A stretch of DNA of 64,000 bases from Pseudomonadota bacterium (GCA_043806915.1 JAZDGM010000024.1:31240-95239); one strand, 5' to 3'. Shown: positions 27,999-47,857, counted from the first letter of the stretch. Made by a program: numbers and translations. The notes: generated by a model from the letters alone, not told the origin.

Positions 27999-28025
27999 AA
28001 TTTGCCTCCCGGTTTCACCGCGCCC

Positions 28026-29453: not shown

Positions 29454-29532
29454 TACTTCCTCCTTGCGTCATCCTTGGGCCGGAATGCGGCCGCCGGCGA
29501 ATGTGTTTTCAAGGGCTAGGGGAGCGGATGAA

Positions 29533-30663: not shown

Positions 30664-30694
30664 CCCAGGCGGGCCCCCTCGTCCGGCGCCGGGC

Positions 30695-31492
30695 TCAGCC
30701 GGGCAGCCGTCCGGCCCGAAAGGCCTTCAGATATTTCATGCAATAATCGTCGCGACCGGCCAGGGCCTCGGCGGCGATAATGCCCGTCATCATCTTTTCA
30801 TCCAGGGGGTTGACGATGGCCCCGTCCAACCCCTTGGCAATGGCCATCATCATGAAGGTCTGATTCAAAAATTTCCGTGAAGGAAGTCCAAATGAAATAT
30901 TGGACAGGCCGCAGGCGGTGTGAATGCCCGGATAACGACTCCGAATCTGTTCCACGGCCTCGAGAAATTCCCGGCCGAAGGAATTGTTGACGCTGACCGG
31001 CTGCACCAGCGGGTCCACGAAAATATCGTCCAACTTCACGTTGCTTTGAACCAGGGCGTTGACCAGCTTGTCCGCGATGCGCAGCCGGTCTTCCACGGTC
31101 TGGGGCATGCCCTCGTCGCTCATGCACAAGGCGATGACCTTGAAACCGGAACCGGCGACAAGGGGCATCAGCTTGTCGAAGCGGTCTTTTTCGAGGGAAA
31201 TCGAGTTGATCATGGGGGCGCCCCGGTGGACGGACAACCCGGCCTCGATGGCCTGGGGGTTAGGGCTGTCCAGGGCGCACGGCTTGTCCGTGACCGCTTG
31301 CACGTTCTCGACCAGCCACTTCAGGTATTCGGGCTCCTGGTGGACGAACACCCCGGCGTTGACGTCGATGAAGTCCGCGCCGGCCTGGGCCTGGTCAAGG
31401 GCCGTCTTCCTGATATAGTCGGCGTCCTGGGCCGAAATCGCCTGGCCGATGGCTTTTCGGCTGGCGTTGATCAATTCTCCGATAATAATCAT
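30695..31492 (-). CDS. Methyltetrahydrofolate:corrinoid methyltransferase (pterin-binding, MtgA/AcsE/MtrH-like)
   Basis: MIIIGELINASRK, DFIDVNAG, INSISLE, GLSNISFGLP: pterin-binding barrel motifs. Start taken at the ATG at 31492. Confidence 0.85.
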   Translation of the reverse strand: MIIIGELINASRKAIGQAISAQDADYIRKTALDQAQAGADFIDVNAGVFVHQEPEYLKWLVENVQAVTDKPCALDSPNPQAIEAGLSVHRGAPMINSISLEKDRFDKLMPLVAGSGFKVIALCMSDEGMPQTVEDRLRIADKLVNALVQSNVKLDDIFVDPLVQPVSVNNSFGREFLEAVEQIRSRYPGIHTACGLSNISFGLPSRKFLNQTFMMMAIAKGLDGAIVNPLDEKMMTGIIAAEALAGRDDYCMKYLKAFRAGRLPG

Positions 31493-31628
31493 GTCGCGTC
31501 TCCGGCGCCAACCTCGGACCAGGAGCGGCAAGACGCCTTTCCGCTCCCCCGGCCGGGTCGGCTGAAATGAATCGCTCCCAAAACGGGCGGCGGAGGCGTC
31601 CCGCCCGGCCCGCCTCGAGGCGCGGAAA

Positions 31629-32261
31629 TCAGCTCAACATGCCCTTGGCCAGTTTGACCGCGGAACCGGCGTCGGTGGAAAAACCGTCCGCGCCGATCTC
31701 GTCGGCGTAGGCCTGGGTGACGGGCGCCCCGCCCACCAGGATTTTCACCTTGTCCCGCAGGCCGGCCGTCTTGACGGCCTCGATGGTGGCTTTCATCATC
31801 GGCATGGTCGTGGTCAAAAGGGCCGACAGGCAGATCAGGTCCGCATGCCTGGCCTGGGCCTGGCGCACGAATTCCTCGGGAGCGATGTCCACGCCCAGGT
31901 TATGCACTTCCAGGCCCGAGCTTTCCAGCATCATGGCCACCAGATTCTTCCCGATGTCGTGCAGGTCGCCCTTGACCGTGCCGATGACCACCCGGCCCCG
32001 AACCCCGGCCCCGCCCTCGCCCAGCAGGGGCTTGAGAATTTCCACCCCGGTCGCCATCACCTGCGCGGCCATCAGGACCTCGGGGATGAACATGTCCCCG
32101 TTCTCCATCTTTTCGCCGATAACGTCCATGCCCGGGATAAGACCCTGGGCCAGTATCTCCCCGGCCGAAACGCCGGCGTCCAGGTCCCGTTTGACATAGC
32201 CGGCCAAAACGTCCCTGGCCCCATCCATAAGCGCCTGCAAATACTTCTCCTTATCGACCAT
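31629..32261 (-). CDS. Corrinoid (cobalamin-binding) methyl-carrier protein
   Basis: B12-binding signature GDLHDIGKNLV (DxHxxG), plus SALLTTTM and ILVGGAPV. 210 aa, like MtgC/MttC-type proteins. Confidence 0.9.
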   Translation of the reverse strand: MVDKEKYLQALMDGARDVLAGYVKRDLDAGVSAGEILAQGLIPGMDVIGEKMENGDMFIPEVLMAAQVMATGVEILKPLLGEGGAGVRGRVVIGTVKGDLHDIGKNLVAMMLESSGLEVHNLGVDIAPEEFVRQAQARHADLICLSALLTTTMPMMKATIEAVKTAGLRDKVKILVGGAPVTQAYADEIGADGFSTDAGSAVKLAKGMLS

Positions 32262-32296
32262 TTCAGCCTCCTGGTATTAAATGGCGTCCATTGCCC

Positions 32297-32457
32297 GCGC
32301 GTTTTCGAAACGCGGTCCGGTTCGTTTACGGTCAAGCCCCGGGCCTTTTTTCCGGTTGTTCCAGCCCTTGTCGGGGCGGCTCGCGGCTCGTTTTTTTTCG
32401 CTTGACATGGTCAGGCCTTGACTGTATGACTATACTTGTATAGACGATATGTCAAGC
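32297..32457. promoter_or_regulatory. Divergent control region with palindromes (candidate HutC/GntR operators)
   Basis: CGCGTTT-tcg-AAACGCG at 32297-32313. GCTTGACAT at 32400-32408 is paired with ATGTCAAGC at 32449-32457. These enclose TGTATGACTATACTTGTATAGAC, which contains GTAT-N4-ATAC and GTATAGAC elements. TTGACA and TATACT hexamers are also present. Confidence 0.35.
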
Positions 32458-32582
32458 AAAAAACAAATACCTCCCCCCGCCGAAAACTTTCGAAAACAAC
32501 GGCCGGCGGAGGTCCTTCAACCGACTCGGCGACGCGAGGGGTCGACTTCGACCCGGGGCGTTTTTCGGAAAAGAGCACAGCC

Positions 32583-33377
32583 ATGGACCTTAATTCCCAA
32601 AACTTTTCCCGAAAAATCGACGACAGCCCGCTCCCCTTGTACCAAAAGCTGAAAAGCCTGATTGCCACCCGCATCCAAAAAAAGGAATGGCTGCCGGGCC
32701 AGCAGATACCATCCGAGGCGGAATTCGTCGAAACCTATGGCATTTCGCGGATGACGGCCAGCCGGGCCCTGCGGGAGCTGACCTCCGAGGGGTACCTGGT
32801 CAGGGTCCAGGGAGTGGGCACCTTCGTGGCCAGGCGCAAGCCCAAGGCGGATATGCTGCAAATCCGCAGCATCGCCGACGAAATCAGGGAACAGGGCGGC
32901 CTGTATTCCAACCGGGTGGATGTTCTGGTGGAGGAGCCTGCTTCCGAGCCGGTGGCCGAGGAGATGGAAATCGCCCCCGGGGAAAAAGTCTATCACAGCA
33001 TCATCGTGCATCTGGACCGGGGCGCGCCCATCCAGATCGAGGACCGCTATGTCGGCGTCGACATCGCCCCCGAATATATCCGGCAAAATTTCACCCGGAT
33101 CACGCCGACCCAGTATCTACTGGATATCGCCCCTCCGGCCGAGGTGGAGCATCTCCTGGAAGCGATCCTGCCGGACAAGAAGACCATGAAGCTCTTGAAG
33201 ATCGGGCCTCGCGAACCCTGCCTGGTGCTTCATCGGCGCACCTGGACCGCGGGCCGGGTGGTCACCTCGGTCAAGATGATCTATCCCGGCTCCCGGTACC
33301 GGATCGGCGGTCATTTCCGGCTCGACGAGTCCGGCCCCGCCGGTTCCGGGCCGCGCGGGTTTTCCTTCATTCCATGA
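32583..33377 (+). CDS. GntR-family transcriptional regulator, HutC subfamily (UTRA effector domain)
   Basis: wHTH segment PLYQKLKSLIATRIQKKEWLPGQQIPSEAEFVETYGISRMTASRALRELTSEGYLVRVQGVGTFV plus a UTRA-sized C-terminal domain. Lies 19 nt upstream of the hutH-like gene. Confidence 0.85.
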   Translation: MDLNSQNFSRKIDDSPLPLYQKLKSLIATRIQKKEWLPGQQIPSEAEFVETYGISRMTASRALRELTSEGYLVRVQGVGTFVARRKPKADMLQIRSIADEIREQGGLYSNRVDVLVEEPASEPVAEEMEIAPGEKVYHSIIVHLDRGAPIQIEDRYVGVDIAPEYIRQNFTRITPTQYLLDIAPPAEVEHLLEAILPDKKTMKLLKIGPREPCLVLHRRTWTAGRVVTSVKMIYPGSRYRIGGHFRLDESGPAGSGPRGFSFIP

Positions 33378-33396
33378 AAAACCGGAGGAACAGATA

Positions 33397-34926
33397 ATGA
33401 ATGCCATTATTCTCGGCGTCGACGGCATGACCATCGAGGACCTGGTCGCCATCGCCCGGCGCGGGGCGAAGGTCCAGGCCTCGCCGGAAGCCGTCCGCCG
33501 CATCGTTGAAACCCGGCGGCTGGTGGACCAATGGGTGGACCAGGGCCGGGTCATCTACGGCGTCACCACCGGCTTCGGGGCCCTGAGCGGGGTCACGATC
33601 TCCAAGGAAGACACGGGCAGGTTGCAATACAACATCCTTTTGAGCCATTCGGCCGGAGTGGGCGCCCTGTTGGACGAGGAATCCGTGCGGGCGATCATGG
33701 CCCTACGGATCAAGGACATCGCCCGGGGACATTCCGGGGTGCGGTTGGAAACCTTCAACCATCTGATCAGGCTTCTCAACGCCGGAGTGGTCCCCTGCGT
33801 GCCGGAAAAGGGCTCGGTCGGCGCCAGCGGAGACCTGGTGCCCCTGGCGCACCTGGCGCTCCCGCTCATCGGCGAGGGGGAAGCCTTTTATCAGGGCCGA
33901 CGCCTCGGCGGCCGGGAAGCCCTGCGAGCCGTGGGGCTGGAACCGCTGCGCCTGACCTCGGCCGAGGGGCTGGGCTTGCTCAACGGCACTCAATTCATGG
34001 GCGGCCTCGGCGGGCTGGCCGTGCACGACGCGGGCCTTCTTTGCAAGCACACGGACATCGCCGCATCCCTGAGCCTGGAAGTGCTCATGGGCAGCCGGAC
34101 GGAATTCGACCCCAGAATCCAGCGGGTCCGCCCCCACCCCGGCCAGGCCGCGGCGGCGGACAACATGCTGCGCCTAACCCAGAACAGCGAAATAATCTCC
34201 TCCCACAAGGACTGTTCCCGGGTCCAGGACGCCTATACCCTGCGCTGCTCCCCCCAGGTGCATGGGGCCAGCCACGACGCCATCGAATACGCCCGGCGAG
34301 TGCTGGAAACCGAGATTAATTCGTCCACCAACAACCCCCTGTTCTTCCACGAGGAAGGCGATTTTCTCCTGGGCGGCAACTTTCACGACCAACCCGTGGG
34401 CCTGGCCATGGATTTCCTGGGCATCGCGGTCGCGGAACTGGCCAACATTTCCGAACGCCGGGTCGAGCGCCTGGTCAACCCCATGCTCAGCGGCCTACCG
34501 GCCTTTCTGGTGAGCGAGGGCGGGCTTAACTCGGGGTTCATGATCGCCCAGTACACGGCCGCGTCCCTGGTTTCGGAAAACAAGGTCCTGGCCCACCCGG
34601 CCACCGTGGACTCCATCCCCACCTCGGCCAACAAGGAAGACCACGTTTCCATGGGCGCCATCGCGGCCCGCAAGGCCAGGCAGATAGTGGAAAACACGGA
34701 AAACGTGCTGGCCATAGAACTGCTCTGCGCGGCCCAGGCCATGGACCTGTTCACCAACATGAAGCCCGGCGAGGGGTCCCTGCGGGCCCACCAGGTCATC
34801 AGGGAAACCGTGTCCCATTTGGACGAGGACCGCCTGTTGGCCAGGGACATCGCCGCGGTCAGGGCCTTGATCAAGTCGGGCCGCCTGCTGGAAGCCGTGG
34901 AGGAAACCGTGGGTCCCTTGAATTGA
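33397..34926 (+). CDS. hutH: Histidine ammonia-lyase family enzyme (MIO-type)
   Basis: MIO-forming triad in GSVGASGDLVPLAHL. 509 aa, full-length aromatic amino acid lyase architecture. Confidence 0.88.
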   Translation: MNAIILGVDGMTIEDLVAIARRGAKVQASPEAVRRIVETRRLVDQWVDQGRVIYGVTTGFGALSGVTISKEDTGRLQYNILLSHSAGVGALLDEESVRAIMALRIKDIARGHSGVRLETFNHLIRLLNAGVVPCVPEKGSVGASGDLVPLAHLALPLIGEGEAFYQGRRLGGREALRAVGLEPLRLTSAEGLGLLNGTQFMGGLGGLAVHDAGLLCKHTDIAASLSLEVLMGSRTEFDPRIQRVRPHPGQAAAADNMLRLTQNSEIISSHKDCSRVQDAYTLRCSPQVHGASHDAIEYARRVLETEINSSTNNPLFFHEEGDFLLGGNFHDQPVGLAMDFLGIAVAELANISERRVERLVNPMLSGLPAFLVSEGGLNSGFMIAQYTAASLVSENKVLAHPATVDSIPTSANKEDHVSMGAIAARKARQIVENTENVLAIELLCAAQAMDLFTNMKPGEGSLRAHQVIRETVSHLDEDRLLARDIAAVRALIKSGRLLEAVEETVGPLN

Positions 34927-35025
34927 TTTTTTCCGGGCCGGACCTAGCCGCCCGGCCCGGACGACCCTTTTTCGAACCAGTTTCCAAGACCGAGGCCCCC
35001 CGGCCTCGGAAAAAAGGAGCACATA

Positions 35026-36474
35026 ATGAACCCCGATGAATTTGGATTCAACCCGACCCTGACCTTCCTGTCGGAAGAAGATAAGAAGAAGCTCCATGGG
35101 GGCGTATTGAGGCTTTTGGAAGAGACCGGCATGGCCCTCCAACACGAGGAAGCCCTGAAGCTGCTCGGGCGGGCCGGCGCCGACGTCGACGACCCGGAAC
35201 ACGTCAAAATCCCCTCCAAGCTGGTGGAACAAGCCCTCAAAAGCGCTCCCCATAACATCCCGGTCTACAATCGGGAAGGCGAATTGGCCATGGACCTGGG
35301 CGGCCGCCGGGCCTATTATGGGACCGGGTCGGACCTCATGTCCCATGTGGACGCCAAGACCCTGGAACGCCACCGCACCACCATCGAGGACATCCGCCGG
35401 TCGGCCCTGGTCTGCGACGCCCTGCCCAACATCGACTTCATCATGTCCTTCGCCCATCCCCACGAAGTCGACCCGCACCGGTCCTATTTGGAAAGTTTCC
35501 GGGCCATGCTGGAATACTCGGTCAAGCCCATCGTGAACACCGCCGAAAACCGCCGGGACCTGGAAAAGATGTGGGAAGTCTCCGCGGTGCTGCGGGGCGG
35601 GGAACAACAGTTGCGGGACCAGCCCTACACCATTCAGTACGACGAACCCATCAGCCCGCTCAAGCACCCCTTCACCAGCGTGGACAAGCTGATTTTCTGC
35701 GCCCGCAAGGGCATGCCGGTGATTTATTCCCCCGCGCCCATCGCCGGCTCCACCGCGCCCATCACCATCGCGGGGCATGTGCTGCAGGGCCTGGCCGAGT
35801 CGTTCTTCGGCCTGGTGGTCCACCAGCTCGCGGCCGAGGGCGCCCCGTTCCTGATGGGCATCGGCCCCGCCGTCCTGGACATGTCCACCGGTCAATGTTC
35901 GTACAACGCGCCGGAATACCTTCTATCCCTGGCGACCATGGTGGAAATGACCAAATATTACGACCTGCCCAACTGGGGGTACGCCGGCACCAGCGACTCC
36001 CAGATTCCGGACATGCAAGCTTCGTTTGAAGGCGGCCTGCTGACCTTCATCTCCGCCCTGACCGGATCGAACCTCAACCACGACGTGGGGTATATCGACT
36101 TCGGCCTGACCGGCAGCCTGGAATGGATCGTGATCATGGACGAGATCATCAGCCAGATCAGGCGGATTCAGAAAGGCGTCCCCATCACCGAGGAAACCAT
36201 GGCCCTCCCGGTCATCGCCGAGGCCGGCAAGACGGGTCATTTCCTGACCCATCCCCACAGCCTGAAACACCTTCGTTCCGTCCAGTGGCGGCCCAAGTTG
36301 ATGAACCGCCTGGGGTATGAAAAATGGACCAAGCTCGGCGGGGTCGGGCTGCTGGAAAAAGCCGGCCGGCGAGTGGATGAAATTCTGGCCGGATACCAGG
36401 TCAAGCCGCTCGACCCGAGCGCGGCCCAGGAAATCCAAGCGCTTTGCGCCGCATTCACCGGACTGGAGAAATAA
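35026..36474 (+). CDS. MttB-superfamily methyltransferase, non-pyrrolysine type (paralog 2)
   Basis: 482 aa uninterrupted ORF, alignable by eye to paralog 1 (YYGTGSDLMSHVD.., ALPNIDFIMSF, GSTAPITIAGHV, HFLTHPHS). Embedded between the hutH-like gene and the ABC importer genes. Confidence 0.88.
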   Translation: MNPDEFGFNPTLTFLSEEDKKKLHGGVLRLLEETGMALQHEEALKLLGRAGADVDDPEHVKIPSKLVEQALKSAPHNIPVYNREGELAMDLGGRRAYYGTGSDLMSHVDAKTLERHRTTIEDIRRSALVCDALPNIDFIMSFAHPHEVDPHRSYLESFRAMLEYSVKPIVNTAENRRDLEKMWEVSAVLRGGEQQLRDQPYTIQYDEPISPLKHPFTSVDKLIFCARKGMPVIYSPAPIAGSTAPITIAGHVLQGLAESFFGLVVHQLAAEGAPFLMGIGPAVLDMSTGQCSYNAPEYLLSLATMVEMTKYYDLPNWGYAGTSDSQIPDMQASFEGGLLTFISALTGSNLNHDVGYIDFGLTGSLEWIVIMDEIISQIRRIQKGVPITEETMALPVIAEAGKTGHFLTHPHSLKHLRSVQWRPKLMNRLGYEKWTKLGGVGLLEKAGRRVDEILAGYQVKPLDPSAAQEIQALCAAFTGLEK

Positions 36475-36600
36475 CGGAGGCGACCCATTTGGGAATAAAA
36501 ACCCGCCCCGAATCTGGTAGAATCGCCTCCCAAGGTTTGAACCCGCCGGAAGCGTCCCCCGGGGCGCCCGGCCATTTTCCATAATTAGGAAGGAACGGAA

Positions 36601-38136
36601 ATGAAGAAGAAACTGGTATTGTCGATTTTTCTGGTGGTCTTGCTGGGTCTTGGGGCGCCGTTCACGGTTTTCGGCGCGTCCGACGGCAGGTCCGGCGGCA
36701 TCCTCAAGGTCGGCTGCCAACCCACCAACAACCTGGACCCCCATTTTTCAGCCTCCATTTCGGACATTCTGCTGCTGGAGCAGGTTTATCACCATTTGAC
36801 CTTCATCGACGCCAAGAACCAGGCGGTCCCGGACCTGGCGGCATCCTGGGAATCGGCGGACGGCAAGACCTGGGTCTTCCACCTCAAGGACGGCGTCAAG
36901 TTCAGCGACGGCCGGCCGGTCACGTCCAAGGACGTCGTCTTCAGCTACAACCGGCTGCGGGACGCCAAGGTCGGCGCCCCCACGGTCAAGCTGTATGAAA
37001 ACGTGACCGCCATCGAGGCCGTGGCCCCCCTGACCGTCAAATTCACCCTGGCCCGGTCCAACCCCGAATTTCCGGCCGACACGGGCGACTACCACGCCTG
37101 CGTGATCCCGGACGGGACCAAGGACCCGGCCAAGGAACGCCTCGGCAGCGGCCCGTATGTGGTCGCGGCGGTGTTCCCGGAGGACCGGATCGTCCTGAAA
37201 AAGAACCCCCACTTCGCCATGAAGGACGCGGACGGAAGCGCCCTGCCCTATTTAGAGGAAATTCACCTGGTCTTTTCCCCGGACATGGGCGGACAGGTTG
37301 AGGCCCTGCGCGGCGGCGAATTGAACTTCGTCGGCGGCCTGACCACCGAATTCGCCGCGACCGTGGAAAAGGACCCCAACGCCAAGGTGCTTAAAAACGC
37401 CTCCAACATGCACTGGATGATCCACATGCGCTCCGACCAGGGGCATGTGGCGGCGGATAACCGCGTTCGCCAGGCCTTCAAGCTGGCCACCGACCATACG
37501 GCCATCATCAACGCCGTCCGGCCCGGCCTGGCCGCTCCCGGCAACGGCTTCAGCCCGGTGGGACCGGCCTACGGCGAGTACTATCTCAACCAGCCTCCGG
37601 CCACCGACATCGAGAAAGCCAAGGCCCTCCTGGCCGAGGCCGGATACGCCAAGGGCCTCAAGATCGACTTGGTCGCCCAGAACCAGTTGGACGTCATTCC
37701 CATCGCCACGGTCTGGAAGGACCAACTGGCCAAGATCGGCGTGACCGTCAACATCCAGGTCGTTCCCACGGACCTGTACTACGGTGAAGGCGAAAACAGT
37801 TGGCTTAAATGCGATTTCGGCATCACCGACTGGGGCACCAGGGCCACTCCGGTCACCTATTACAACCTGGCCTACACTTCCGACGGTCCCTGGAACGGCG
37901 CCCACTGGTCCGATCCCGAGTTCGACGCCCTGGCCCACCAGGTCGACAGCGAGATGGACCAGGCCAAGCGCGTGCAGTTGTACCACCAAACCCAAAAAAT
38001 CCTGATCGAGCGCGGTCCCGTCATCAACGCCTATTTCGAAATGGCCGTGGCCGGCGTCAGCTCCAAGCTGGAACAGGTGGAACTGGCCTCCGACTGGGCC
38101 CGCACCCGCTTCTGGAACAGCTACTTCAAAAAATAA
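36601..38136 (+). CDS. ABC transporter substrate-binding protein, family 5 (peptide/opine/nickel type)
   Basis: Signal peptide MKKKLVLSIFLVVLLGLGAPFTVFGA and family 5 N-terminal pattern (LKVGCQPTNNLDPH..., DLAASWESADGKTWVFHLKDGVKFSDG). Confidence 0.9.
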   Translation: MKKKLVLSIFLVVLLGLGAPFTVFGASDGRSGGILKVGCQPTNNLDPHFSASISDILLLEQVYHHLTFIDAKNQAVPDLAASWESADGKTWVFHLKDGVKFSDGRPVTSKDVVFSYNRLRDAKVGAPTVKLYENVTAIEAVAPLTVKFTLARSNPEFPADTGDYHACVIPDGTKDPAKERLGSGPYVVAAVFPEDRIVLKKNPHFAMKDADGSALPYLEEIHLVFSPDMGGQVEALRGGELNFVGGLTTEFAATVEKDPNAKVLKNASNMHWMIHMRSDQGHVAADNRVRQAFKLATDHTAIINAVRPGLAAPGNGFSPVGPAYGEYYLNQPPATDIEKAKALLAEAGYAKGLKIDLVAQNQLDVIPIATVWKDQLAKIGVTVNIQVVPTDLYYGEGENSWLKCDFGITDWGTRATPVTYYNLAYTSDGPWNGAHWSDPEFDALAHQVDSEMDQAKRVQLYHQTQKILIERGPVINAYFEMAVAGVSSKLEQVELASDWARTRFWNSYFKK

Positions 38137-38242
38137 TCCGTCGCGGCGCCCCGGCCCGGCAAGCGAGTCGGCCCGGGGCTTCGCCGGAAAAATTTCCAAG
38201 CTGAAACGAACCGGGCCGATATTCCCAAGGGGGTTGCCGCAC

Positions 38243-39112
38243 ATGGAGGACAATAGTCGAACTCAACACGCCGCGGGGTTCGCCCTGTACTGGAAACGGT
38301 TTTTAAAAAACCCGTTTTCAGTGGCCGGAACGGCGATCTTCCTCTTCTTCCTGCTCATGGCGGGCGTCGGCCCCGCGGTCGCCCCCCACGGGTTCCAGGA
38401 ACAAAACATTTCCGAGCGCCTCCGCCCCCCCGGCGCCGCTCATCTCTTCGGGACCGATCAATACGGACGGGATATTTTCAGCCGCATCCTGACCGGGTCC
38501 CGGGGCATTTTCATCCTGGGCGGGTCGGGGACCATCCTGGCGGCCCTGCTCGGGACCGCCATCGGACTCTTTTCCGGGTTTTACGGCGGACTCATCGACG
38601 AGACGATCATGCGGGCCCTGGACATTTTGCTGGCCTTCCCGCCCCTGCTCCTGGCCCTGGTGCTCCTGGCTTCTTCCGGCCCCTCCCTGGTCAACCTGGT
38701 GGCGGTGGTGACCATTCTCTACACGCCCATGCTGGCCCGGGTCGTGCGCGGCCTGACCCTCGACCTGAAAACCAAGGAATTCATCGAGGCGGCCAAGACC
38801 AGGGGCGAATCGAAGTTCTATATTCTATTCAGGGAAATCCTGCCCAACGCCCTGGCCCCGCTCTTCGTCGAAATGTCCATGCGGTTTTCCTACGCCATTT
38901 TCCTGGTCGCTTCCCTGGGCTTTCTGGGCCTGGGCCAGCAACCCCCGTCCCCCGACTGGGGCTTGCAAATTAACGAGGCCCGCCCCTACTTTTCCACCGC
39001 GCCCTGGATGCTGCTTTTTCCGGCGGCGGCCATCTCGGTCCTGGTGGTGTCCACCAACCTGATGAGCGACGGACTACGGCAAGTCCTGCAGCCGACCGCG
39101 GACCGGAGGTGA
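38243..39112 (+). CDS. ABC transporter permease (DppC/OppC-like)
   Basis: Six-TM binding-protein-dependent permease with EAA-like loop (EFIEAAKTRGESKFYILFREILPNALAP). Confidence 0.85.
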   Translation: MEDNSRTQHAAGFALYWKRFLKNPFSVAGTAIFLFFLLMAGVGPAVAPHGFQEQNISERLRPPGAAHLFGTDQYGRDIFSRILTGSRGIFILGGSGTILAALLGTAIGLFSGFYGGLIDETIMRALDILLAFPPLLLALVLLASSGPSLVNLVAVVTILYTPMLARVVRGLTLDLKTKEFIEAAKTRGESKFYILFREILPNALAPLFVEMSMRFSYAIFLVASLGFLGLGQQPPSPDWGLQINEARPYFSTAPWMLLFPAAAISVLVVSTNLMSDGLRQVLQPTADRR

Positions 39113-39114
39113 TT

Positions 39115-41196
39115 ATGGGTTCGGAAGCCGTCCCCACCCTCGACATCGAAAACCTGACCATTGCCTACGAAACGGAAACCGGGACCCTTCTCGCCGTCCG
39201 AAACGCCACGGTCGGCATCCGGAAAGGCGAAAGCTTCGGGCTGGTGGGCGAGTCCGGCTCGGGCAAGACCACCCTGGCCCTGGGCGCCATCCGCTACCTG
39301 CCGGCCAACGGCCGCATCGCCGGCGGACGGGTCCGCTTGCAAGGGCAGAGCCTGACCGATACGCCCTGGCGCGACCTGTTCAACATCTGGGGCAAACGCA
39401 TCGGCATGGTCTACCAAAACCCGGGCGGCGCCCTGAACCCGAGCCTGACCATCGGGCGGCAGATATCCGAGGCCGCGGTTATCCACCAGGGCCTGACCAA
39501 GAAGGAAGGCCTGGCCAAGGCCGTGGAGATGCTCGGCAAGGTGGCCATGCCCAACCCCGCGACCGTGATCAACCTTTATCCCCACCAGTTGTCCGGCGGA
39601 ATGTTGCAGCGCTGCATCATCGCCATGGGCCTGATCAACGACCCCGAACTATTGATCATGGACGAACCCACCACCGCCCTGGACGTCACCACCCAGGCCC
39701 TGGTGCTGGACCTGGTCTCGGACCTCAAAAAACAGTTCGACTCGTCCATTCTCTACATTACCCACGACTTGGCCGTGGTGGCCAAAATCTGCGACCGCAT
39801 CGGCGTCATGTACGCCGGCGAAATGGTGGAAATCGGTCCCAAGCGGGAAATGTTCTTCCATTCGCGCCATCCCTACACCATGAGCCTGTTGGGGTGCATA
39901 CCGCATTTCGACCCCCGGAGCCGCAAGCGCTCCCTGGTCAGCATCCCCGGCCGGATTCCCCGGCTCACCCGGTTGCCCGACGGCTGCATCTTTTCTCCCC
40001 GGTGCTTTTTCGTCCAGGATAGGTGCCGACTGGAGCGTCCGCCGTTCCGGGAAATAGCTCCCGGCCATTTTTCAGCCTGTTTCCACTGGGACGTCCTGCC
40101 GCGACGCGTCGAGGACGTGGCCGGAAGCATCTCGTACCCCCGGCCGGAACAGGCCGCGGTCCTGTTGAAGGCCGATAGGGTGCATAAGGAATTCGACGCC
40201 GTGGAAACCTTTTTCAGCCTGAAGGGAAAAAGCGGAAAAAAGGTCAAGGCGGTCAACGACGTCTCCCTGGAAATACCCGAGGGATACACCCTGGGCATCG
40301 TGGGTGAAAGCGGCTGCGGCAAGACCACCTTCATGAGGACCATCATCGGGCTGCAAGCCCCGACCTCCGGTCAAAACAGCCTGCGCGGGCTGCCCCTGGC
40401 GCCGGAAACGTCCCAACGCCCCCGGGACGTTCTGCGCAAAATACAGATGGTTTTCCAGAACCCCGACGCGTCCCTGAACCCGCGGCACACCCTGGCCCAG
40501 GCCATCGGCCGCCCCATGGTCCTGTTCAACCCCCAAATGGACCGTTCGACCGCCGCTAGAAAGACCCTGGAATTGCTGGAAGCGGTCAACCTTCCGGCCC
40601 ACTACGCCGAGAGGCTGCCCGGGGAGCTCAGCGGCGGGGAAAAACAGCGGGCCGCCATCGCCCGGGCGTTCGCCGCGGACCCGGAACTGGTCCTGCTCGA
40701 CGAACCGCTCTCCGCCCTGGACGTGTCGGTCCAGGCATCCCTGGTCAACCTCCTGTTCGAGCTGCAAGCCCGAAACCGGGCGACCTATCTGTTCATCTCC
40801 CACGACCTGGCGGCGGTCCATCACCTGGCGGACCTGATCGCGGTGATGTACCTGGGCCGGGTCATGGAAGTCGGGGAAGCGGACGACGTCTTCGCGCCTC
40901 CGTTTCATCCGTACACCGAGGCCCTGCTCTCGGCCATTCCGGTGGCCAATCCGGATATCCGGCAGGAAAACATCCGGCTTCATGGTTCGGTCCCCAATCC
41001 CGTGGACCTGCCCTCGGGCTGCGTCTTTCATACCCGCTGCCCCCGAAAAATCGGGCCGATCTGCGAAACCGAGACGCCGCCCTGGCGCGGCGGTAAAAAA
41101 CAGAGCCGGGTCTGGTGCCACTTCGACCTGGACGCCCTGGCCGCCGTGCAGGCCCAAGCCATCCGGTCAGCGGAACAAAACGGGGTGACGGCATGA
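39115..41196 (+). CDS. Fused double ATP-binding protein of ABC transporter (DppD-DppF-like)
   Basis: Two complete cassettes: GESGSGKTT / LSGGMLQR / LIMDEPTTALD and GESGCGKTT / LSGGEKQR / VLLDEPLSALD. A GTG at 39109 is an alternative start. Confidence 0.9.
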   Translation: MGSEAVPTLDIENLTIAYETETGTLLAVRNATVGIRKGESFGLVGESGSGKTTLALGAIRYLPANGRIAGGRVRLQGQSLTDTPWRDLFNIWGKRIGMVYQNPGGALNPSLTIGRQISEAAVIHQGLTKKEGLAKAVEMLGKVAMPNPATVINLYPHQLSGGMLQRCIIAMGLINDPELLIMDEPTTALDVTTQALVLDLVSDLKKQFDSSILYITHDLAVVAKICDRIGVMYAGEMVEIGPKREMFFHSRHPYTMSLLGCIPHFDPRSRKRSLVSIPGRIPRLTRLPDGCIFSPRCFFVQDRCRLERPPFREIAPGHFSACFHWDVLPRRVEDVAGSISYPRPEQAAVLLKADRVHKEFDAVETFFSLKGKSGKKVKAVNDVSLEIPEGYTLGIVGESGCGKTTFMRTIIGLQAPTSGQNSLRGLPLAPETSQRPRDVLRKIQMVFQNPDASLNPRHTLAQAIGRPMVLFNPQMDRSTAARKTLELLEAVNLPAHYAERLPGELSGGEKQRAAIARAFAADPELVLLDEPLSALDVSVQASLVNLLFELQARNRATYLFISHDLAAVHHLADLIAVMYLGRVMEVGEADDVFAPPFHPYTEALLSAIPVANPDIRQENIRLHGSVPNPVDLPSGCVFHTRCPRKIGPICETETPPWRGGKKQSRVWCHFDLDALAAVQAQAIRSAEQNGVTA

Positions 41197-42137
41197 TACG
41201 CTTCCTCATTCGCCGCCTGGGCTTTGTCGCGATCACCATTATCGCTTCCTCGGCCTTGATCTTCCTCGCCACCCAGGTGATGCCCGGGGACGTGGCCCGC
41301 ATGATCCTCGGGCGGTTCGCCACCGACGAGGCCCTCCACGCCCTGCGGGAACAGTTGGGGCTCAACCGGCCCTTGCTCGTCCAGTATTTTTCGTGGCTGT
41401 TCGATTTCGTCCGGGGCGACTGGGGCGTGTCCTTGAGCACCAACAGCCCGGTCATGGAACTGGTCTTTGGCCGGTTGCATAATTCGGCCTGGCTGGCGGG
41501 AGTGGCCTTTGTGCTGTACGTCCCTTTAGGCATTCTGCTGGGGCTCTGGGCCGCCTTGCGCCGCAACACCATCACGGACCAAATCATTTCCATCGGGTCC
41601 CTGTCTTTTATCGGGCTTCCGGAATTCGTCACCGGAGTAATCCTGATCTCGGTTTTCGCCATTAAACTCAAATGGCTCCCGGCCAGCTCGGCCATCATGC
41701 CGGACGCCGGGTTCATGCAGGCCCTGCCGCGCCTGATCCTGCCCGGAGTGTCCACCGCCCTGGTCAGCCTGGCCTATGTCACCCGGATGACCCGGTCGAG
41801 CACCATCGATGTTCTGCACACCGATTACGTGCGCACCGCCTATCTCAAGGGGCTCCGGCCGCGCCGGGTGTTGTTCGGGCACGTCCTTCGAAACGCCCTG
41901 CTGCCCACCATTACCGTGGTGGCCATCGGCGTGGGCTGGCTCATCGGCGGCCTGATCGTGACGGAATCGCTTTTCAGCTACCCCGGGCTGGGCCGCCTGC
42001 TGCTTTTCGCCATCCAGCGCCAGGACCTGCCCCTGATCCAGGCCACGACCCTGCTGTTGGTGCTGATATTCAGCGTGTCCAATCTGGTCGCCGATATTCT
42101 GTACGCCTATCTGAACCCCCGCATCCGCTATGATTGA
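41193..42137 (+). CDS. ABC transporter permease (DppB/OppB-like)
   Basis: MIRFLIRRLGFVAITIIASSALIFL N-terminus typical of DppB-type permeases. ATGA overlap with the ATPase gene. Confidence 0.9.
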   Translation: MIRFLIRRLGFVAITIIASSALIFLATQVMPGDVARMILGRFATDEALHALREQLGLNRPLLVQYFSWLFDFVRGDWGVSLSTNSPVMELVFGRLHNSAWLAGVAFVLYVPLGILLGLWAALRRNTITDQIISIGSLSFIGLPEFVTGVILISVFAIKLKWLPASSAIMPDAGFMQALPRLILPGVSTALVSLAYVTRMTRSSTIDVLHTDYVRTAYLKGLRPRRVLFGHVLRNALLPTITVVAIGVGWLIGGLIVTESLFSYPGLGRLLLFAIQRQDLPLIQATTLLLVLIFSVSNLVADILYAYLNPRIRYD

Positions 42138-42239
42138 CGGGCGGGACGGGGGGATTTGGCAATGACCTGGACGCGAGTCGGCTTCGCCCGCGCGTCCGAA
42201 TCGGCGACGGCGGGGGCCGTCGCTCGCGAGGTATAAAAA

Positions 42240-44273
42240 ATGCTGAACAACAATCAAATCCTTGAGGCCATGGCTATCAGGCTCGACGAGGTCCCCCGGT
42301 CGACCCCGACCTTCGTCCCCGGGGTCAGGCGGGCGCCCGACCGGGGGTTTCGCCTCACCCCGGCCCAGGCCGCCGCGGCCCTGAAAAACGCCCTGCGCTA
42401 TATTCCGCCGGAGCGCCACGCCGAATTGCTCCCCGAATTTGTGAACGAGCTTAAAACCAGGGGCCGCATTTACGGTTATCGCTTTCGGCCGGAAGGACGC
42501 CTGTGGGCCAAACCCGTCCAGGAATACCAGGGCAAATGCCTGGCCGGACGGGCTTTCCAGGTGATGATCGACAACAACCTGGATTTCGAGGTCGCCCTTT
42601 ATCCCTACGAGCTGGTCACCTACGGCGAAACAGGGGCGGTCTGCCAGAACTGGATGCAGTACCGCCTCATCAAAAAATACCTGGAAGCCTTGACCGAGGA
42701 CCAGACCCTGGTGGTTCAGTCCGGCCATCCCCTGGGGCTTTTCCGTTCCGCTCCGGACAACCCCCGGGTGGTCATCACCAACGGGTTGCTGGTGGGGTTG
42801 TACGACAACCCGGCGGATTGGGAAGTGGCGGTCCAGATGGGGGTTTCCTCCTACGGCCAGATGACCGCGGGCGGCTGGATGTACATCGGTCCCCAGGGCA
42901 TTGTTCACGGGACCTACAACACGCTTCTGAGCGCCGGCAGGAAAATGTGCGGCGTGGCCCCGGAATCAAACCTGGCCGGGCTCCTGTTCGTCTCCTCCGG
43001 GCTCGGCGGCATGAGCGGCGCCCAACCCAAGGCCGCTAAAATTTCCGGCGCGGTCTCCCTCACCGCCGAGGTGGACCCTTCCCGGATCGAGACCCGCCGC
43101 CGGCAGGGCTGGGTGGACCTGGTTTCCAGCGACCTGGACCAGGTCATGATCGCCGCGGACCGGGCCCGGGCGCAAAAGCAGGCCCTGTCCATCGCCTACC
43201 ACGGCAACGTGGTGGACCTGCTCGAATACCTCGACGCCCATGACGCGAGGGTCGATCTGCTCTCGGACCAGACATCCTGCCATGTGGTTTATGACGGCGG
43301 GTATTGCCCCCAGGGCCTGACCTTCGAGGAACGAACGGACATGCTGGCCCGCGACCGGGCCGGTTTCCGCGCCCTGGTGGATAAAAGTCTCCGCCGCCAC
43401 TTCCAGCTCATTAAATCCCTGTCCGCCAAGGGCGCCTATTTCTTCGATTACGGCAACGCCTTTTTAAAGGCCGTCTTCGATTCCGGCGTCCGGGAAGCCT
43501 CGAAAAACGGCGTGGACGATAAGGACGGCTTCGTCTTCCCCTCCTACTTCGAGGACCTCATGGGTCCCATCTTCGACTACGGTTACGGCCCGTTCCGCTG
43601 GGTCTGCCTGAGCGGCAGTCCCGAGGACCTAGCCAAAACCGACCGGGCCGCCATGAGCTGCATCGACCCGAACCGCCGCCCCGAGGACCGGGACAACTAC
43701 AACTGGATTCGCGACGCCGGCGAAAACAAGCTCGTGGTGGGCAGCCAGGCCCGCATTCTGTACCAGGACGCCGGGGGGCGGGTCAACATCGCCCTCAAGT
43801 TCAACGAATTGGTCCGGCGGGGAGAAATAGGGCCGGTCATGCTCGGCCGGGACCACCACGACCCGGGCGGGACGGATTCGCCCTTCCGTGAAACAGCCAA
43901 CATCAAGGACGGCAGCAACGTCTGCGCCGACATGGCGGTTCATGGCTTCGCCGGCAACGCGGCCCGGGGCATGTCCCTGGTCGCCCTGCACAACGGCGGC
44001 GGCACCGGCATCGGCAAGGCCGTCAACGGCGGCTTCGGCTTGGTCCTGGACGGCAGCCGACGGGTCGACGACATCATCGGGTCGGCCATGTCCTGGGACG
44101 TCATGGGCGGCGTGGCCCGTCGCAACTGGGCCCGCAACCCCAACGCCATGGAAGTGGCCGCGGCGTACAACCGGGAAAATTCCAACGGCGACCAGATCAC
44201 CATCCCCTTCCTGACCGAGGAAGGCTTGGTCGAACAGGCCGCGGCCGCGTTGTTCACCACGGACAAACAATAA
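42240..44273 (+). CDS. hutU: Urocanate hydratase family, long (about 677 aa) form
   Basis: MTAGGWMYIGPQGIVHGTYNTL and SSGLGGMSGAQPKA (NAD site) motifs. The length resembles the long, eukaryote-like urocanase class. Confidence 0.88.
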   Translation: MLNNNQILEAMAIRLDEVPRSTPTFVPGVRRAPDRGFRLTPAQAAAALKNALRYIPPERHAELLPEFVNELKTRGRIYGYRFRPEGRLWAKPVQEYQGKCLAGRAFQVMIDNNLDFEVALYPYELVTYGETGAVCQNWMQYRLIKKYLEALTEDQTLVVQSGHPLGLFRSAPDNPRVVITNGLLVGLYDNPADWEVAVQMGVSSYGQMTAGGWMYIGPQGIVHGTYNTLLSAGRKMCGVAPESNLAGLLFVSSGLGGMSGAQPKAAKISGAVSLTAEVDPSRIETRRRQGWVDLVSSDLDQVMIAADRARAQKQALSIAYHGNVVDLLEYLDAHDARVDLLSDQTSCHVVYDGGYCPQGLTFEERTDMLARDRAGFRALVDKSLRRHFQLIKSLSAKGAYFFDYGNAFLKAVFDSGVREASKNGVDDKDGFVFPSYFEDLMGPIFDYGYGPFRWVCLSGSPEDLAKTDRAAMSCIDPNRRPEDRDNYNWIRDAGENKLVVGSQARILYQDAGGRVNIALKFNELVRRGEIGPVMLGRDHHDPGGTDSPFRETANIKDGSNVCADMAVHGFAGNAARGMSLVALHNGGGTGIGKAVNGGFGLVLDGSRRVDDIIGSAMSWDVMGGVARRNWARNPNAMEVAAAYNRENSNGDQITIPFLTEEGLVEQAAAALFTTDKQ

Positions 44274-44355
44274 GGGCGAGGCGCAAGGCCCTTGCCCGGC
44301 GGTCCCGGCCCGGCGCTTCCCCGACCGGATCGGGACCGCGACCCAGGATAGACAG

Positions 44356-45966
44356 ATGAAAAAAATAGTCGAATGCGTCCCCAACTTTTCCGAGGGCCGC
44401 GCTCCCGAAATAATCGAAGCCCTGGCCGCGGCCATTCGCCAAACCCCGGGCTGCCGGCTGCTGGACGTGGACCCCGGCAAGTCCACCAACCGGACCGTCT
44501 ACACCTTTGTCGGAGACCCGGAAGCCGTGGTGGAAGGCGCCCTGGCCGCCGCCCGGGTGGCCCGGGAAAAAATCGACATGAGGCGTCACACCGGCGAACA
44601 CCCCCGCTTCGGCGCCCTCGACGTCTGCCCCTTTGTCCCCGTTTCCGGGGTCGACATGGCCGAGTGCGTGGCCATCTCGAAGGAATTCGCCCGCCGCGCC
44701 GCCGAGGAACTGGGGGTCCCCATCTTTCTGTACGAGGAAGCGGCGCCGGCCGAATATCGTAAAAAGCTGCCCGATATTCGCCGGGGGGAATACGAGGGCC
44801 TGGCTCAAAAATTGACCGACCCCCGCTGGAAGCCCGACTTCGGACCGGCCGAATTCATCCCCTCCTGGGGGGCCTCGGCCGTCGGAGCCCGCATGTTCCT
44901 TATCGCCTACAACGTCAACATCCTCGGCGCGCCCAACCAGGCCCACCGGATCGCCTTGAACCTGCGGGAAGCCGGGCGCGGGGACGACCAGCCCGGCCGG
45001 CTTAGGGAAGTCAAGGGCATGGGGTGGTTCGTCGCCGAATATAACCTGGCCCAGGTGACCGTCAACTTGACCGATTTCCGGGTCACCCCCCTTCACGTTT
45101 TGTTCGAGGAAGTGAAAAGGGAAGCCGCGGCCCTGGGCGTCGGCGTGGCCGGGTCCGAAATCGTGGGGGTCGTCCCCCTGGAAGCCATTCTGGCCGCCGC
45201 CGATTATTATATCGAACACGAAAACCTGTTTATCTACCAGGAAGACCAGAAGGCGCGGCTGGCCGTGGAGCGGCTGGGCCTAAGCTCCGCCAATTTCTTC
45301 AATCCCCGGGAAAAAATCATCGAATACATCGTGGCCGAGCCTCCCGACGAACCCTTGGCCGGCCCGACCCTGCGCGGCTTTATCGAGGAAGTCGCTTCCC
45401 GGTCGTCCGCGCCGGGCGGCGGGTCCGTCTCCGCCGCGGCCGCGGCCCTGGGCGTGGGCTTGGGGTCCATGGTCGCCAAGCTCACCCAGGGCGTGCGCAA
45501 GTTCGAGTCGGCTGAACCCGCCTTGCGACGGGCCATACCCGTTCTGCACGACCTGACCCGGAAACTGATCCCCATGATCGACGCGGATACGACCGCCTTC
45601 AACGAATATATGGCCGGCTTGCGGGCCCCCCGGGACACGCGGGAACAGCGGGAAGCCCGGGCCGCCCAAATGGAAGCCGGGTTGAAAACGGCGGTGGAAG
45701 TTCCCCTGAAAACCATGCGGCTCGGCGACCAGGCCTGGGAAGCGCTCCTGGAAGTCGCCCGATGCGGCAACCCCGCCTCCAAATCCGATGTCCAGGTCGG
45801 CGCCAGGATGCTGGAAACCGGCGTCTGGGGCGCCTACCAGAACGTCTTGATCAATATCACGGGCGTCCAAGACCGGGATTTCAGGGAAACCGTGTTGAAG
45901 GAAGCGGAAGCGATCGCGAACCGGGCGCGGGAAAAATGCGCCTCGGTCCTGGATATTCTGAAATAA
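44356..45966 (+). CDS. ftcD: Bifunctional glutamate formimidoyltransferase / formimidoyl-THF cyclodeaminase
   Basis: N-terminal MKKIVECVPNFSEGR (formiminotransferase) and a C-terminal cyclodeaminase segment SSAPGGGSVSAAAAALGVGLGSMVAKLT. Confidence 0.9.
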   Translation: MKKIVECVPNFSEGRAPEIIEALAAAIRQTPGCRLLDVDPGKSTNRTVYTFVGDPEAVVEGALAAARVAREKIDMRRHTGEHPRFGALDVCPFVPVSGVDMAECVAISKEFARRAAEELGVPIFLYEEAAPAEYRKKLPDIRRGEYEGLAQKLTDPRWKPDFGPAEFIPSWGASAVGARMFLIAYNVNILGAPNQAHRIALNLREAGRGDDQPGRLREVKGMGWFVAEYNLAQVTVNLTDFRVTPLHVLFEEVKREAAALGVGVAGSEIVGVVPLEAILAAADYYIEHENLFIYQEDQKARLAVERLGLSSANFFNPREKIIEYIVAEPPDEPLAGPTLRGFIEEVASRSSAPGGGSVSAAAAALGVGLGSMVAKLTQGVRKFESAEPALRRAIPVLHDLTRKLIPMIDADTTAFNEYMAGLRAPRDTREQREARAAQMEAGLKTAVEVPLKTMRLGDQAWEALLEVARCGNPASKSDVQVGARMLETGVWGAYQNVLINITGVQDRDFRETVLKEAEAIANRAREKCASVLDILK

Positions 45967-45973
45967 CCGCCGG

Positions 45974-47035
45974 TTGGCGACAGGAAAACATATTGTGATT
46001 GACCTCGAAAAATTCAACGAACTGTTCCATGTTCCCCCGGCCATGAGAAAATATATCAAGCTGGTGGTCGAACCGCGGGAAATGGAACTGATTCTGGCCC
46101 TGAACGGCGAGACTCTCGACCCGCCGGAAATCGCCCGCCGCCTTGGCCTGCCGGTGGAGGAAGCCGCGGCCTTCCTTGCGCGCTCCTACGAACGCCACGT
46201 AACCACCAAGATCGTGGGCGGGGAAAAAGTCGGCTATGTCTTCGACTACGTGGACGAAACGGGACGGGAAATCCGTTATGCCCCGGCCAAGTTCTACGAC
46301 CGCCTCGACCCGCTGACCATGAACGAAAACTGGACCGATATTCCCGAGGATGTCCGCAAGGAAATTAGCGAGTGGTGGCTGACGGAATATATCGCCAAGG
46401 TCCGGCCCATAGTGGAAAAGATCAAGGAAGACCCGGAAGCCTATTTTCAGATAAAACAGAAGGACTTCCTGTTGGTGGAACAAGCCCTGGAACAGGTGGA
46501 GGCCGCCGAGTTTCACGTGGTGGTCAACTGCGACTGCCGGTCCAGCGAATTGGCTTGCAATCATATGAAGGAAGGCTGCATCCGGTTCGACGACGGGGCC
46601 AGGTACACCGTGGGGCGAGGCCTGGGGCGCGTCCTGACCAAGGACGAGTGCAAAAAGCTGGTCCTGGAAACGGACCGCGACGGCTTGATGCACATCGGCG
46701 CCCTGGGCTGGAAGGAACATGGCCTGTTCGGGTTCTGCAACTGCTGCACCTGCTGCTGTTTCCCCCTCAGGACCGCGGAAAGGCTGCATAGCCAAAAACA
46801 ATACCCCCGCTCCCATTACCTCGCCGTTCGAGACCTGGAAAAATGCATCCACTGCGGGTTATGCACCAAGCGGTGCCAGTTCCACGCCTTTTTTAAGGGC
46901 GAGGACAAACTGGAAATCAAGGGTAAACTGAGGACCAGGGTGCTCTTCGATCCGGAAAAATGCTATGGCTGCGGACTCTGCGCCTCGGCCTGCCCCCAAG
47001 GCGCCATTGTCATGAAAAAGTTGGAACAAGGCTAG
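45974..47035 (+). CDS. Cys-rich iron-sulfur protein (wHTH-like N-terminus, CNCCTCCC cluster, 2x[4Fe-4S] ferredoxin motifs)
   Basis: CIHCGLCTKRCQ and CYGCGLCASACP ferredoxin motifs. Additional Cys clusters NCDCRSSELACNHMKEGC and GFCNCCTCCCFP. Start codon uncertain (TTG at 45974 or GTG at 45995). Confidence 0.7.
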   Translation: MATGKHIVIDLEKFNELFHVPPAMRKYIKLVVEPREMELILALNGETLDPPEIARRLGLPVEEAAAFLARSYERHVTTKIVGGEKVGYVFDYVDETGREIRYAPAKFYDRLDPLTMNENWTDIPEDVRKEISEWWLTEYIAKVRPIVEKIKEDPEAYFQIKQKDFLLVEQALEQVEAAEFHVVVNCDCRSSELACNHMKEGCIRFDDGARYTVGRGLGRVLTKDECKKLVLETDRDGLMHIGALGWKEHGLFGFCNCCTCCCFPLRTAERLHSQKQYPRSHYLAVRDLEKCIHCGLCTKRCQFHAFFKGEDKLEIKGKLRTRVLFDPEKCYGCGLCASACPQGAIVMKKLEQG

Positions 47036-47143: not shown

Positions 47144-47857
47144 ATGATAATATCCGTGGAAAAAGCGGTCACCGCCCAAAACGACCTGATCGCCGCGCGA
47201 CTCCGGGAAAGGCTCGGGGACGAAAAAGTCTTCTGCCTCAATCTTATCGCCGCTCCGGGAGCGGGCAAGACGTCCCTGATAGAAAAAACCATCGCGGGCT
47301 TGGGCGGCCGATTCGGAATACTGGTGGTGGAAGGCGACCCGCGCACCAGCCTCGACGGCGACCGGGTCACGGCCGCCGGGGCCCGGGCCTTTCAGATCAA
47401 CACCCTCGGCGGATGCCACCTCGACGCCCGCATGGTCCAGGTCGAGCTAGACCGGGCGGACCTTGGCGCGGTGGACCTGCTGATTATCGAGAATATCGGC
47501 AACCTGCTCTGCCCCGCCGCCTGGGACCTCGGCGAGGATGTTCGCGTGGTGGTCTCCAGTCTGCCGGAAGGCGCGGACAAGCCGCTCAAATACCCGGAAA
47601 CCTTCAGCCTAGCCCAGGTCCTGGTCATTAACAAGATTGACCTGGGTCCTTTTCTGCCGGTGAAGGCGGCCGATATCCGCGCCGCCGCCCTGCGGGTCAA
47701 CCCCGGACTGGAAGTTTTCGAGGTTTCCTGCCTGACCGGCGCCGGGCTCGACCAGTGGTTGACCTGGCTAGGGGACCGCGTCGGTCAAAAAATGGCCGAA
47801 CTAGGCCCGAAAGACCCCTTACCCCGATCCGGCCCATCGCGAGACCCGCTAGGGTAG
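47144..47857 (+). CDS. hypB: Hydrogenase nickel-incorporation GTPase HypB
   Basis: P-loop AAPGAGKTSL, ENIGNLLCPAAWDLGE, and NKIDL. Confidence 0.9.
   Translation: MIISVEKAVTAQNDLIAARLRERLGDEKVFCLNLIAAPGAGKTSLIEKTIAGLGGRFGILVVEGDPRTSLDGDRVTAAGARAFQINTLGGCHLDARMVQVELDRADLGAVDLLIIENIGNLLCPAAWDLGEDVRVVVSSLPEGADKPLKYPETFSLAQVLVINKIDLGPFLPVKAADIRAAALRVNPGLEVFEVSCLTGAGLDQWLTWLGDRVGQKMAELGPKDPLPRSGPSRDPLG

Follow-up and report, generated by a model that had tools for sequence, protein, structure and literature searches.

How can a bacterial operon that encodes histidine ammonia-lyase (HAL, HutH), urocanate hydratase and bifunctional FTCD carry histidine through to glutamate when hutI, the gene for the intervening step, is missing beside them? 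The question is raised by a stretch of 64,000 nucleotides from a Pseudomonadota bacterium, here called the window (G000:C24:31240-95239, a part of contig C24 in a genome of 6.96 Mb), in which the three genes lie on one strand behind a HutC-type regulator. Profile matches confirm this arrangement, which had been proposed from the sequence alone in what we call the original prediction, and the coordinates given there for the three genes are exact. That prediction had also reported no HutI, HutG or HutF in the window, and family searches of the whole genome extend the result to all of contig C24, where we found no match to TIGR01224 (hutI), TIGR01227 (hutG), TIGR02022 (hutF) or PF01979 (Amidohydro_1). 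We consider it likely that the locus is a folate-dependent hut operon that has lost its in-cluster hutI and receives HutI in trans, most probably from a copy on contig C20.

The genome does contain hutI. The same searches returned two genes above the equivalog cut-off of TIGR01224 (298 bits), both full length and free of internal stops, at C20:59251-60381 (469 bits) and C121:9116-10243 (372 bits), so that the suggestion that this step is encoded elsewhere is borne out. Because no HutG or HutF exceeds its cut-off anywhere in the genome and the window FTCD, present in single copy, is the only FTCD or glutamate formiminotransferase, formiminoglutamate made by either HutI must pass through the window operon; judged by gene content, the window, C20 and C121 loci would depend on one another. 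Contamination was considered as a source of the hutI contigs. It is unlikely for C20 and C24, since both have a tetranucleotide composition typical for this genome, and was rejected for C20 on this ground, with less certainty for the short contig C121.

The relatives of the window urocanase indicate where a hutI would be expected. We collected 80 orthologues of this long-form enzyme (66-77% identity) from Desulfobacterota, Clostridia, Negativicutes, Bacteroidota and Lactobacillales. Where at least 6 kb of sequence was available on each side, hutI was found in the flank in 38 of 47 loci, usually between urocanase and FTCD, as in the UROC-HutI-FTCD clusters of L011, L012, L014, L015, L017-L019, L021 and L024-L027. 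About one-fifth of long-urocanase loci thus have no neighboring hutI, which calls for caution in annotation. The FTCD orthologues in the complete clusters are 67-74% identical to the window enzyme, and in the nearest Desulfobacterota relatives HutC-HAL stands divergent from UROC-HutI-FTCD. Exactly where close relatives hold hutI, the window has the 82-bp junction described in Table 1.

The in-cluster HutIs of the relatives share 40-44% identity with either HutI of this genome. In a quick maximum-likelihood tree, with support given as the Shimodaira-Hasegawa-like approximate likelihood ratio test (SH-aLRT), the in-cluster HutIs from Desulfobacterota come together in a single clade (SH-aLRT 100, 19 rows), and the C20 HutI falls outside it, grouping with the lone HutIs of genomes G145 and G354 (SH-aLRT 100). 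G145 has a cluster without hutI (UROC-FT-HAL-AOR-MttB2) and its sole hutI on another contig, and in G354 hutI stands alone beside a HutC paralogue. Split hut regulons thus recur in the phylum. The most economical reading of these gene orders is loss of the in-cluster hutI from a genome that possessed a further one. The apparently missing third enzyme would then resolve into a split regulon, which calls for neither a new enzyme nor new chemistry.

The regulators and promoters of the two loci point in the same direction. The C20 hutI has its own GntR/UTRA regulator (PF00392 and PF07702), which is 55% identical to the window regulator over 231 residues. In each of the two promoters, an AT-rich palindromic box comes after a TTGACA element. 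Outside this genome, the palindrome TTGTATATACAA stands a short way before the hut genes of L012 (two copies), L087 and L121 (with one mismatch, TTGTATATACAG), and the core GTATATAC alone is found in the intergenic region between the HutC and corrinoid-protein genes of L108. When the 12-mer TTGTATATACAA was scanned against the whole genome, the sole site with one mismatch was at C20:57613, in the promoter of the C20 hutI. In the window promoter the 12-mer is present with two mismatches; for a stretch of 320 bp, the chance of a site of this quality is about 0.003. On C121 the patterns used returned no HutC box. A canonical and co-regulated hutI elsewhere in the genome, together with normal urocanase kinetics, is what the original prediction had set against its own idea of a gap in the pathway, and most of this was found in silico: the gene itself directly, and the co-regulation as a HutC paralogue with a predicted box.

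In Pseudomonas and enterobacteria the hut regulon is repressed by HutC, of the GntR/HutC subfamily, with urocanate as inducer. The window resembles these systems in its regulator, whose gene heads the operon and whose product combines a GntR helix-turn-helix with UTRA, and in the predicted palindromic box of the form GT-N-TA-N-AC that overlaps the promoter. It differs in having two paralogous regulators at two loci, with the pathway split between them, and in a last step that is catalyzed by FTCD and not by HutF/HutG or HutG.

Several points weigh against a HutI supplied in trans from C20. The assembly is a draft of 252 contigs with an estimated contamination of 3.8%, and the HutI of the short contig C121 has a long branch. 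Either of the two copies, C20 or C121, may serve the window operon. With its two mismatches the window box is one of 74 sites of that quality in the 6.96 Mb, and the co-regulation of the window and C20 loci is predicted from sequence motifs. Finally, loss of the in-cluster hutI, as opposed to its never having been present, is argued from the gene order of relatives and not from a rooted reconstruction.

In the pathway that we propose, HAL would convert histidine to urocanate and the long-form urocanase would convert urocanate to 4-imidazolone-5-propionate. The third step would be taken by HutI in trans, most likely the product of the C20 hutI behind its own HutC paralogue and box, with the C121 copy as a possible back-up. 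FTCD would then act on N-formimino-glutamate and tetrahydrofolate (THF) to give glutamate and 5-formimino-THF, and from the latter 5,10-methenyl-THF and ammonia. An ancestral hutI, placed between urocanase and FTCD as in the relatives, would have been lost from the window cluster. HAL and urocanase are 7.3 kb apart, and the space between them, which the original prediction had not described, is filled by MttB2, a non-pyrrolysine methyltransferase of the MttB superfamily, and by a four-gene ATP-binding cassette (ABC) importer; this block would be the insertion of a separate conserved module.

The proposed pathway shares the enzymes of steps one, two and four with the folate-dependent Hut pathway of Clostridia, Bacteroidota and Fusobacterium and with the mammalian pathway (HAL, UROC1, AMDHD1, FTCD). 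The window urocanase, at about 677 amino acids, matches UROC1 and the enzyme of Protein Data Bank (PDB) entry 6UEK, and the bifunctional FTCD matches the animal enzyme. In contrast to the pathway of the anaerobes, hutI lies on other contigs and not in the operon, HAL and urocanase are separated by MttB2 and the importer, and FTCD is followed by an iron-sulfur (Fe-S) protein and by HypB and HypA.

The original prediction had offered as one alternative that an island enzyme with no homology to HutI takes its place, the candidates being the serine-dehydratase-like, OCD-like and enolase-superfamily proteins, to which the Fe-S protein and MttB2 may be added. The absence of hutI from the contig, and the several island enzymes of unassigned substrate, are what this idea has in its favor. 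We find it unsupported and judge it very improbable: the genome has two bona fide hutI genes, and for none of the candidates is the fold known to act in the opening of cyclic amides. The genes for the enolase-superfamily and OCD proteins are part of the divergent corrinoid operon and do not accompany urocanase in the 80 loci. Loci with MttB2, the importer or an Fe-S homologue mostly keep hutI nonetheless (L011, L137, L143, L173 and L187), which indicates that the MttB2 module does not replace HutI. The Fe-S protein, which we read as an electron-transfer protein, begins 8 bp after FTCD and was tried separately as a hidden hydrolase. It belongs to a widespread Fer4 family of 320-390 amino acids (Atlas), has some twelve paralogues in this genome and is absent from all 80 urocanase loci; we rejected it, as a ferredoxin-domain family without a hydrolase fold that does not travel with urocanase. 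Homologues of 27-31% identity stand beside HAL-AOR-MttB2 in L151 and L164.

A further alternative was that the urocanase acts on a substituted urocanate, for example thiourocanate or S-methyl-thiourocanate, so that no HutI would be required. The long form is indeed less studied in bacteria, and a short urocanase-like gene on C121, with 7NED and 8Q9V as its nearest PDB entries, comes close to the S-methyl-thiourocanate hydratase cut-off without reaching it (782 bits, cut-off 880). The window enzyme itself behaves otherwise. Its domains and its closest structure, 6UEK (681 amino acids; 599 bits), agree with the long-form assignment, it has all three Pfam urocanase domains, and it scores 428 bits against TIGR01228, above the hutU cut-off of 375. 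Against the models for thiourocanate and S-methyl-thiourocanate hydratases (NF058530 and NF058531) it reaches 312 and 352 bits, with cut-offs of 930 and 880. Its orthologues at 66-77% identity include the urocanases of complete UROC-HutI-FTCD clusters in several phyla. Among 60 orthologues that have hutI as a neighbor, 328 alignment columns are conserved to 95% or more, and the window enzyme deviates at five of these (R20, V178, L440, G569 and V595). Three of these are conservative swaps between aliphatic residues, R20 lies in an N-terminal extension outside the Pfam-matched domains, and position 569 is N in 6UEK. No lineage-specific change is seen at the conserved columns. By these comparisons the protein is an ordinary long-form urocanase of anaerobes with no sign of altered specificity.

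The enzymes on either side of urocanase in the pathway also contradict a substituted substrate. With 681 bits, HAL passes the TIGR01225 (hutH) cut-off of 539, and it retains the ASG triad that forms the 4-methylideneimidazole-5-one (MIO) cofactor, SH and E as binders of the imidazole, and the motifs NGTQ, QDAYxxR and GGNFH; all positions examined (ASG, Y, SH, N, Q/Y/R, F and E) are present. Its best PDB matches are solved HALs (443 bits), compared with 231 bits for ergothionase 6S7J, and both HAL genes of the genome, in the window and on C121, keep the ASG triad. By its sequence, then, the window HAL is canonical. FTCD, directly downstream of urocanase, has the FTCD_N, FTCD and FTCD_C domains (TIGR02024, 394 bits; cut-off 221) and requires formiminoglutamate. 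The catabolism of ergothioneine and hercynine likewise pairs a HAL-family lyase with a urocanase-family hydratase, but its lyases, ergothionase or the histidine-betaine trimethylammonia-lyase, lack MIO and are followed by thiourocanate hydratase (10.1101/2025.08.13.670108). The window differs from this route in both enzymes, since its lyase has the ASG/MIO triad together with every HAL residue and its hydratase stays below the thiourocanate hydratase cut-offs. We regard a substituted urocanate as hardly credible for this locus.

A HutI supplied in trans would explain the gap in the window cluster; the block inserted between HAL and urocanase raises a question of its own. MttB2 matches PF06253 (264 bits) in an open frame without a TAG codon and is a distant homologue of MtgB (2QNE, 202 bits). 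The characterized non-pyrrolysine MttB systems act on glycine betaine (MtgB), proline betaine (MtpB), carnitine (MtcB), gamma-butyrobetaine (MtyB) and phosphocholine (MthB), and the carboxylate-binding R312 of MtgB is reported to be conserved in all characterized family members (PMC13080624). This residue aligns to W317 of MttB2, and W or F occupies the position throughout the MttB2 clade. H348 of MtgB is kept, F356 aligns to G360 with F359 adjacent, and the counterpart of Y97 is ambiguous because it falls at an alignment gap; the MtgB substrate set as a whole (Y97, R312, H348 and F356) is not found in MttB2. Given that the clade is without the carboxylate-binding arginine, its substrate is probably new. 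MttB2 thus resembles the characterized systems in its PF06253 fold, in the absence of a pyrrolysine codon, in the retained H348 and in having a corrinoid protein and a pterin-binding methyltransferase encoded next door, whereas it differs at R312, in sharing an operon with HAL, and in an importer that is of the Opp type and not of the OpuA/BCCT type. MttB2 would need partners for corrinoid and THF, and by their annotation the products of the divergent operon would supply them.

Orthologues of MttB2 at 52-71% identity were found in 6 of 400 sampled genomes of the phylum and on 80 metagenome contigs. Among these contigs, 21 have a homologous importer, which also accompanies the MttB2 orthologues in L111-L113; HAL (46-73% identity) is present on 15, long urocanase on 7 and hutI on 4. 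The gene most often found directly before MttB2 encodes a tungsten-type aldehyde:ferredoxin oxidoreductase (AOR; AFOR_N and AFOR_C), in 22 of the 33 contigs with enough upstream sequence, and 12 of the 33 have the order HAL-AOR-MttB2. Examples of this AOR include L108 3214-5109 (-), L109 7386-9239 (+), L164, L169, L173, L187 and L192. Our genome has no AOR orthologue (best match, 36% identity), and the window reads HAL-99 bp-MttB2. Oxidation of a substrate aldehyde and supply of low-potential electrons for corrinoid reactivation are candidate roles for AOR.

These associations allow a reading in which the Opp-type importer takes up a methylated histidine and MttB2 moves its methyl group to the corrinoid protein and then to THF. 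The freed histidine would pass through HAL, urocanase, HutI in trans and FTCD, so that HutI would still be needed. The candidates are the ring-methylated 1- or 3-methylhistidine, histidines methylated at N-alpha, with hercynine as the extreme, and dipeptides that include one of these. In its favor, HAL followed by MttB2, often with AOR between them, recurs in 15 of the 80 metagenome loci and in G390, G145 and L011, and each of the two HAL genes of our genome has an MttB gene less than 5 kb away. The synteny HutC-HAL-AOR-MttB2-SBP, beside CoP-MttB1 (SBP, substrate-binding protein; CoP, corrinoid protein), is kept in G390 (L108), a member of another family, and the MttB2 clade, without its arginine, probably has a new substrate. 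The link of HAL to the MttB2 clade looks selected from this recurrence. Yet the tightest partners of MttB2 are AOR and the importer and not HAL, which is absent from about two-thirds of the loci with enough upstream sequence. Literature searches returned no paper that ties MttB to hercynine or histidine, and for MttB with AOR or HAL they gave unrelated papers on archaeal metagenome-assembled genomes alone.

The requirements of HAL bear on the candidates. A canonical MIO-dependent HAL needs a free alpha-amino group, so that N-alpha-methylated substrates would first have to be demethylated completely, and we know of no non-pyrrolysine MttB enzyme that does this. A ring-methylated histidine would fit HAL best, with demethylation in one step, and N-alpha-betaines would call for exhaustive demethylation. 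On balance we hold a methylated-histidine substrate to be possible but rather unlikely. Somewhat more doubtful still is the broader proposal that HAL-(AOR)-MttB2 with an Opp-type importer is an undescribed conserved module of anaerobic Desulfobacterota, devoted to corrinoid-dependent demethylation of a histidine derivative that feeds the Hut pathway. If it were true, one substrate would yield both methyl-THF and methenyl-THF for the Wood-Ljungdahl pathway, the MttB superfamily would gain a new substrate class, and this would be the first anaerobic route for methylhistidines. The recurrent operon link of a canonical HAL with an uncharacterized MttB clade and its own importer, and elsewhere a tungsten-type AOR, is worth following; should the link reflect a shared substrate, anaerobic corrinoid demethylation would extend to histidine derivatives common in animal and fungal detritus. 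A ligand could not be inferred for the importer SBP from solved structures, to which its matches are all distant (the nearest being 5U4O, AapF and AgaA, an agropinic-acid binder).

The regulator may connect the corrinoid genes with the hut genes. A single control region of 320 bp is common to the divergent corrinoid/MttB1 operon and the HutC-hut operon (Table 1), and G390 keeps the same layout (L108 7670-7918, with the GTATATAC box). Because the divergent control region is single and the layout is conserved in G390, the HutC-type repressor may also control the corrinoid demethylase genes.

The features of the locus are collected in Table 1. For the regulator, the in-frame ATG at 32583 is the likely start and gives 264 amino acids; the frame 32687-33397 was rejected, as it has no Pfam or NCBIfam match and the gene lies in the frame of the open reading frame (ORF) listed. 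A terminator scan across the operon gave counts on a level with those of shuffled sequence and was of no help in setting the operon limits. When sequencing runs were searched for 42240-45966, no RNA run was returned, and two metagenome DNA runs shared about 5% of its words. The nickel chaperone genes for HypB-like GTPase and HypA trail an operon that encodes a Nik/Dpp-family importer. Homologous importers adjoin MttB2 orthologues in loci without a HypB match (HypA was searched in 12 loci), and this argues against the import of nickel-histidine.

Table 1. Features of the hut locus and of the divergent operon, in window coordinates
Feature	Position	Strand	Basis or remark
Divergent operon	26991-32261	-	Pfam
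OCD/mu-crystallin family protein (divergent operon)	26991-27998	-	
MttB paralogue MttB1 (divergent operon)	28026-29453	-	
Enolase-superfamily protein (divergent operon)	29533-30663	-	
Pterin-binding methyl-corrinoid:THF methyltransferase (divergent operon)	30695-31531	-	
Corrinoid protein (divergent operon)	31629-32261	-	
Control region common to both operons, 320 bp	32262-32582		
Promoter-like site	32408-32436	+	promoter scan and sequence
HutC-type box CTTGTATAGACGA	32436-32447	+	promoter scan and sequence
HutC-type regulator (GntR helix-turn-helix and UTRA), ORF	32436-33377	+	PF00392, PF07702
Histidine ammonia-lyase HAL (HutH), MIO-dependent	33397-34926	+	TIGR01225
MttB2, non-pyrrolysine MttB-superfamily methyltransferase	35026-36474	+	PF06253
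Opp/Dpp/Nik-family ABC importer, four genes	36601-42137	+	Pfam/NCBIfam matches, all below equivalog cut-offs
Importer SBP	36601-38136	+	
Importer permease	38234-39112	+	
Importer fused double ATPase	39109-41196	+	
Importer second permease	41115-42137	+	start probably near 41193
Urocanate hydratase, long form, 677 amino acids	42240-44273	+	PF17391, PF01175, PF17392; TIGR01228
Urocanase/FTCD junction, 82 bp	44274-44355	.	no ORF, no N run, continuous sequence
Bifunctional FTCD	44356-45966	+	PF07837, PF02971, PF04961; TIGR02024
353-amino-acid protein with C-terminal 2x[4Fe-4S]	45974-47035	+	Fer4 domains in Pfam
HypB-like GTPase (operon tail)	47144-47857	+	PF02492
HypA (operon tail)	47958-48335	+	PF01155

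The C121 contig (14.7 kb) carries a second hut-like cluster (L009, G000:C121, 329-13401). It encodes the short urocanase-like protein, a PotD-type ABC system, an M20 hydrolase, a MIO-type HAL, HutI, an AtzE-family amidase and an MttB paralogue; FTCD, HutG and HutF are all absent from this contig. Another layout without hutI was seen in two loci from metagenome-assembled genomes of Desulfobacterota (L033 and L043), in which a corrinoid-protein gene lies a few kilobases from UROC-HAL, HAL is 60-62% identical to the window enzyme, and neither hutI nor FTCD is found within the flank.

On C20 the hutI operon (C20:57772-64871; L010 7772-14871) has the order divergent GntR/UTRA regulator, stand-alone FTCD_C cyclodeaminase, S-adenosylmethionine-dependent methyltransferase (227 amino acids), HutI and Liv-type ABC importer. 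In G399 (L123), hutI and a short hutU have homologues of two of these genes at their sides, the methyltransferase (54% identity) and the Liv-type SBP (51%), and the C20-type methyltransferase and Liv-type SBP may be regular hut-associated genes in the phylum.

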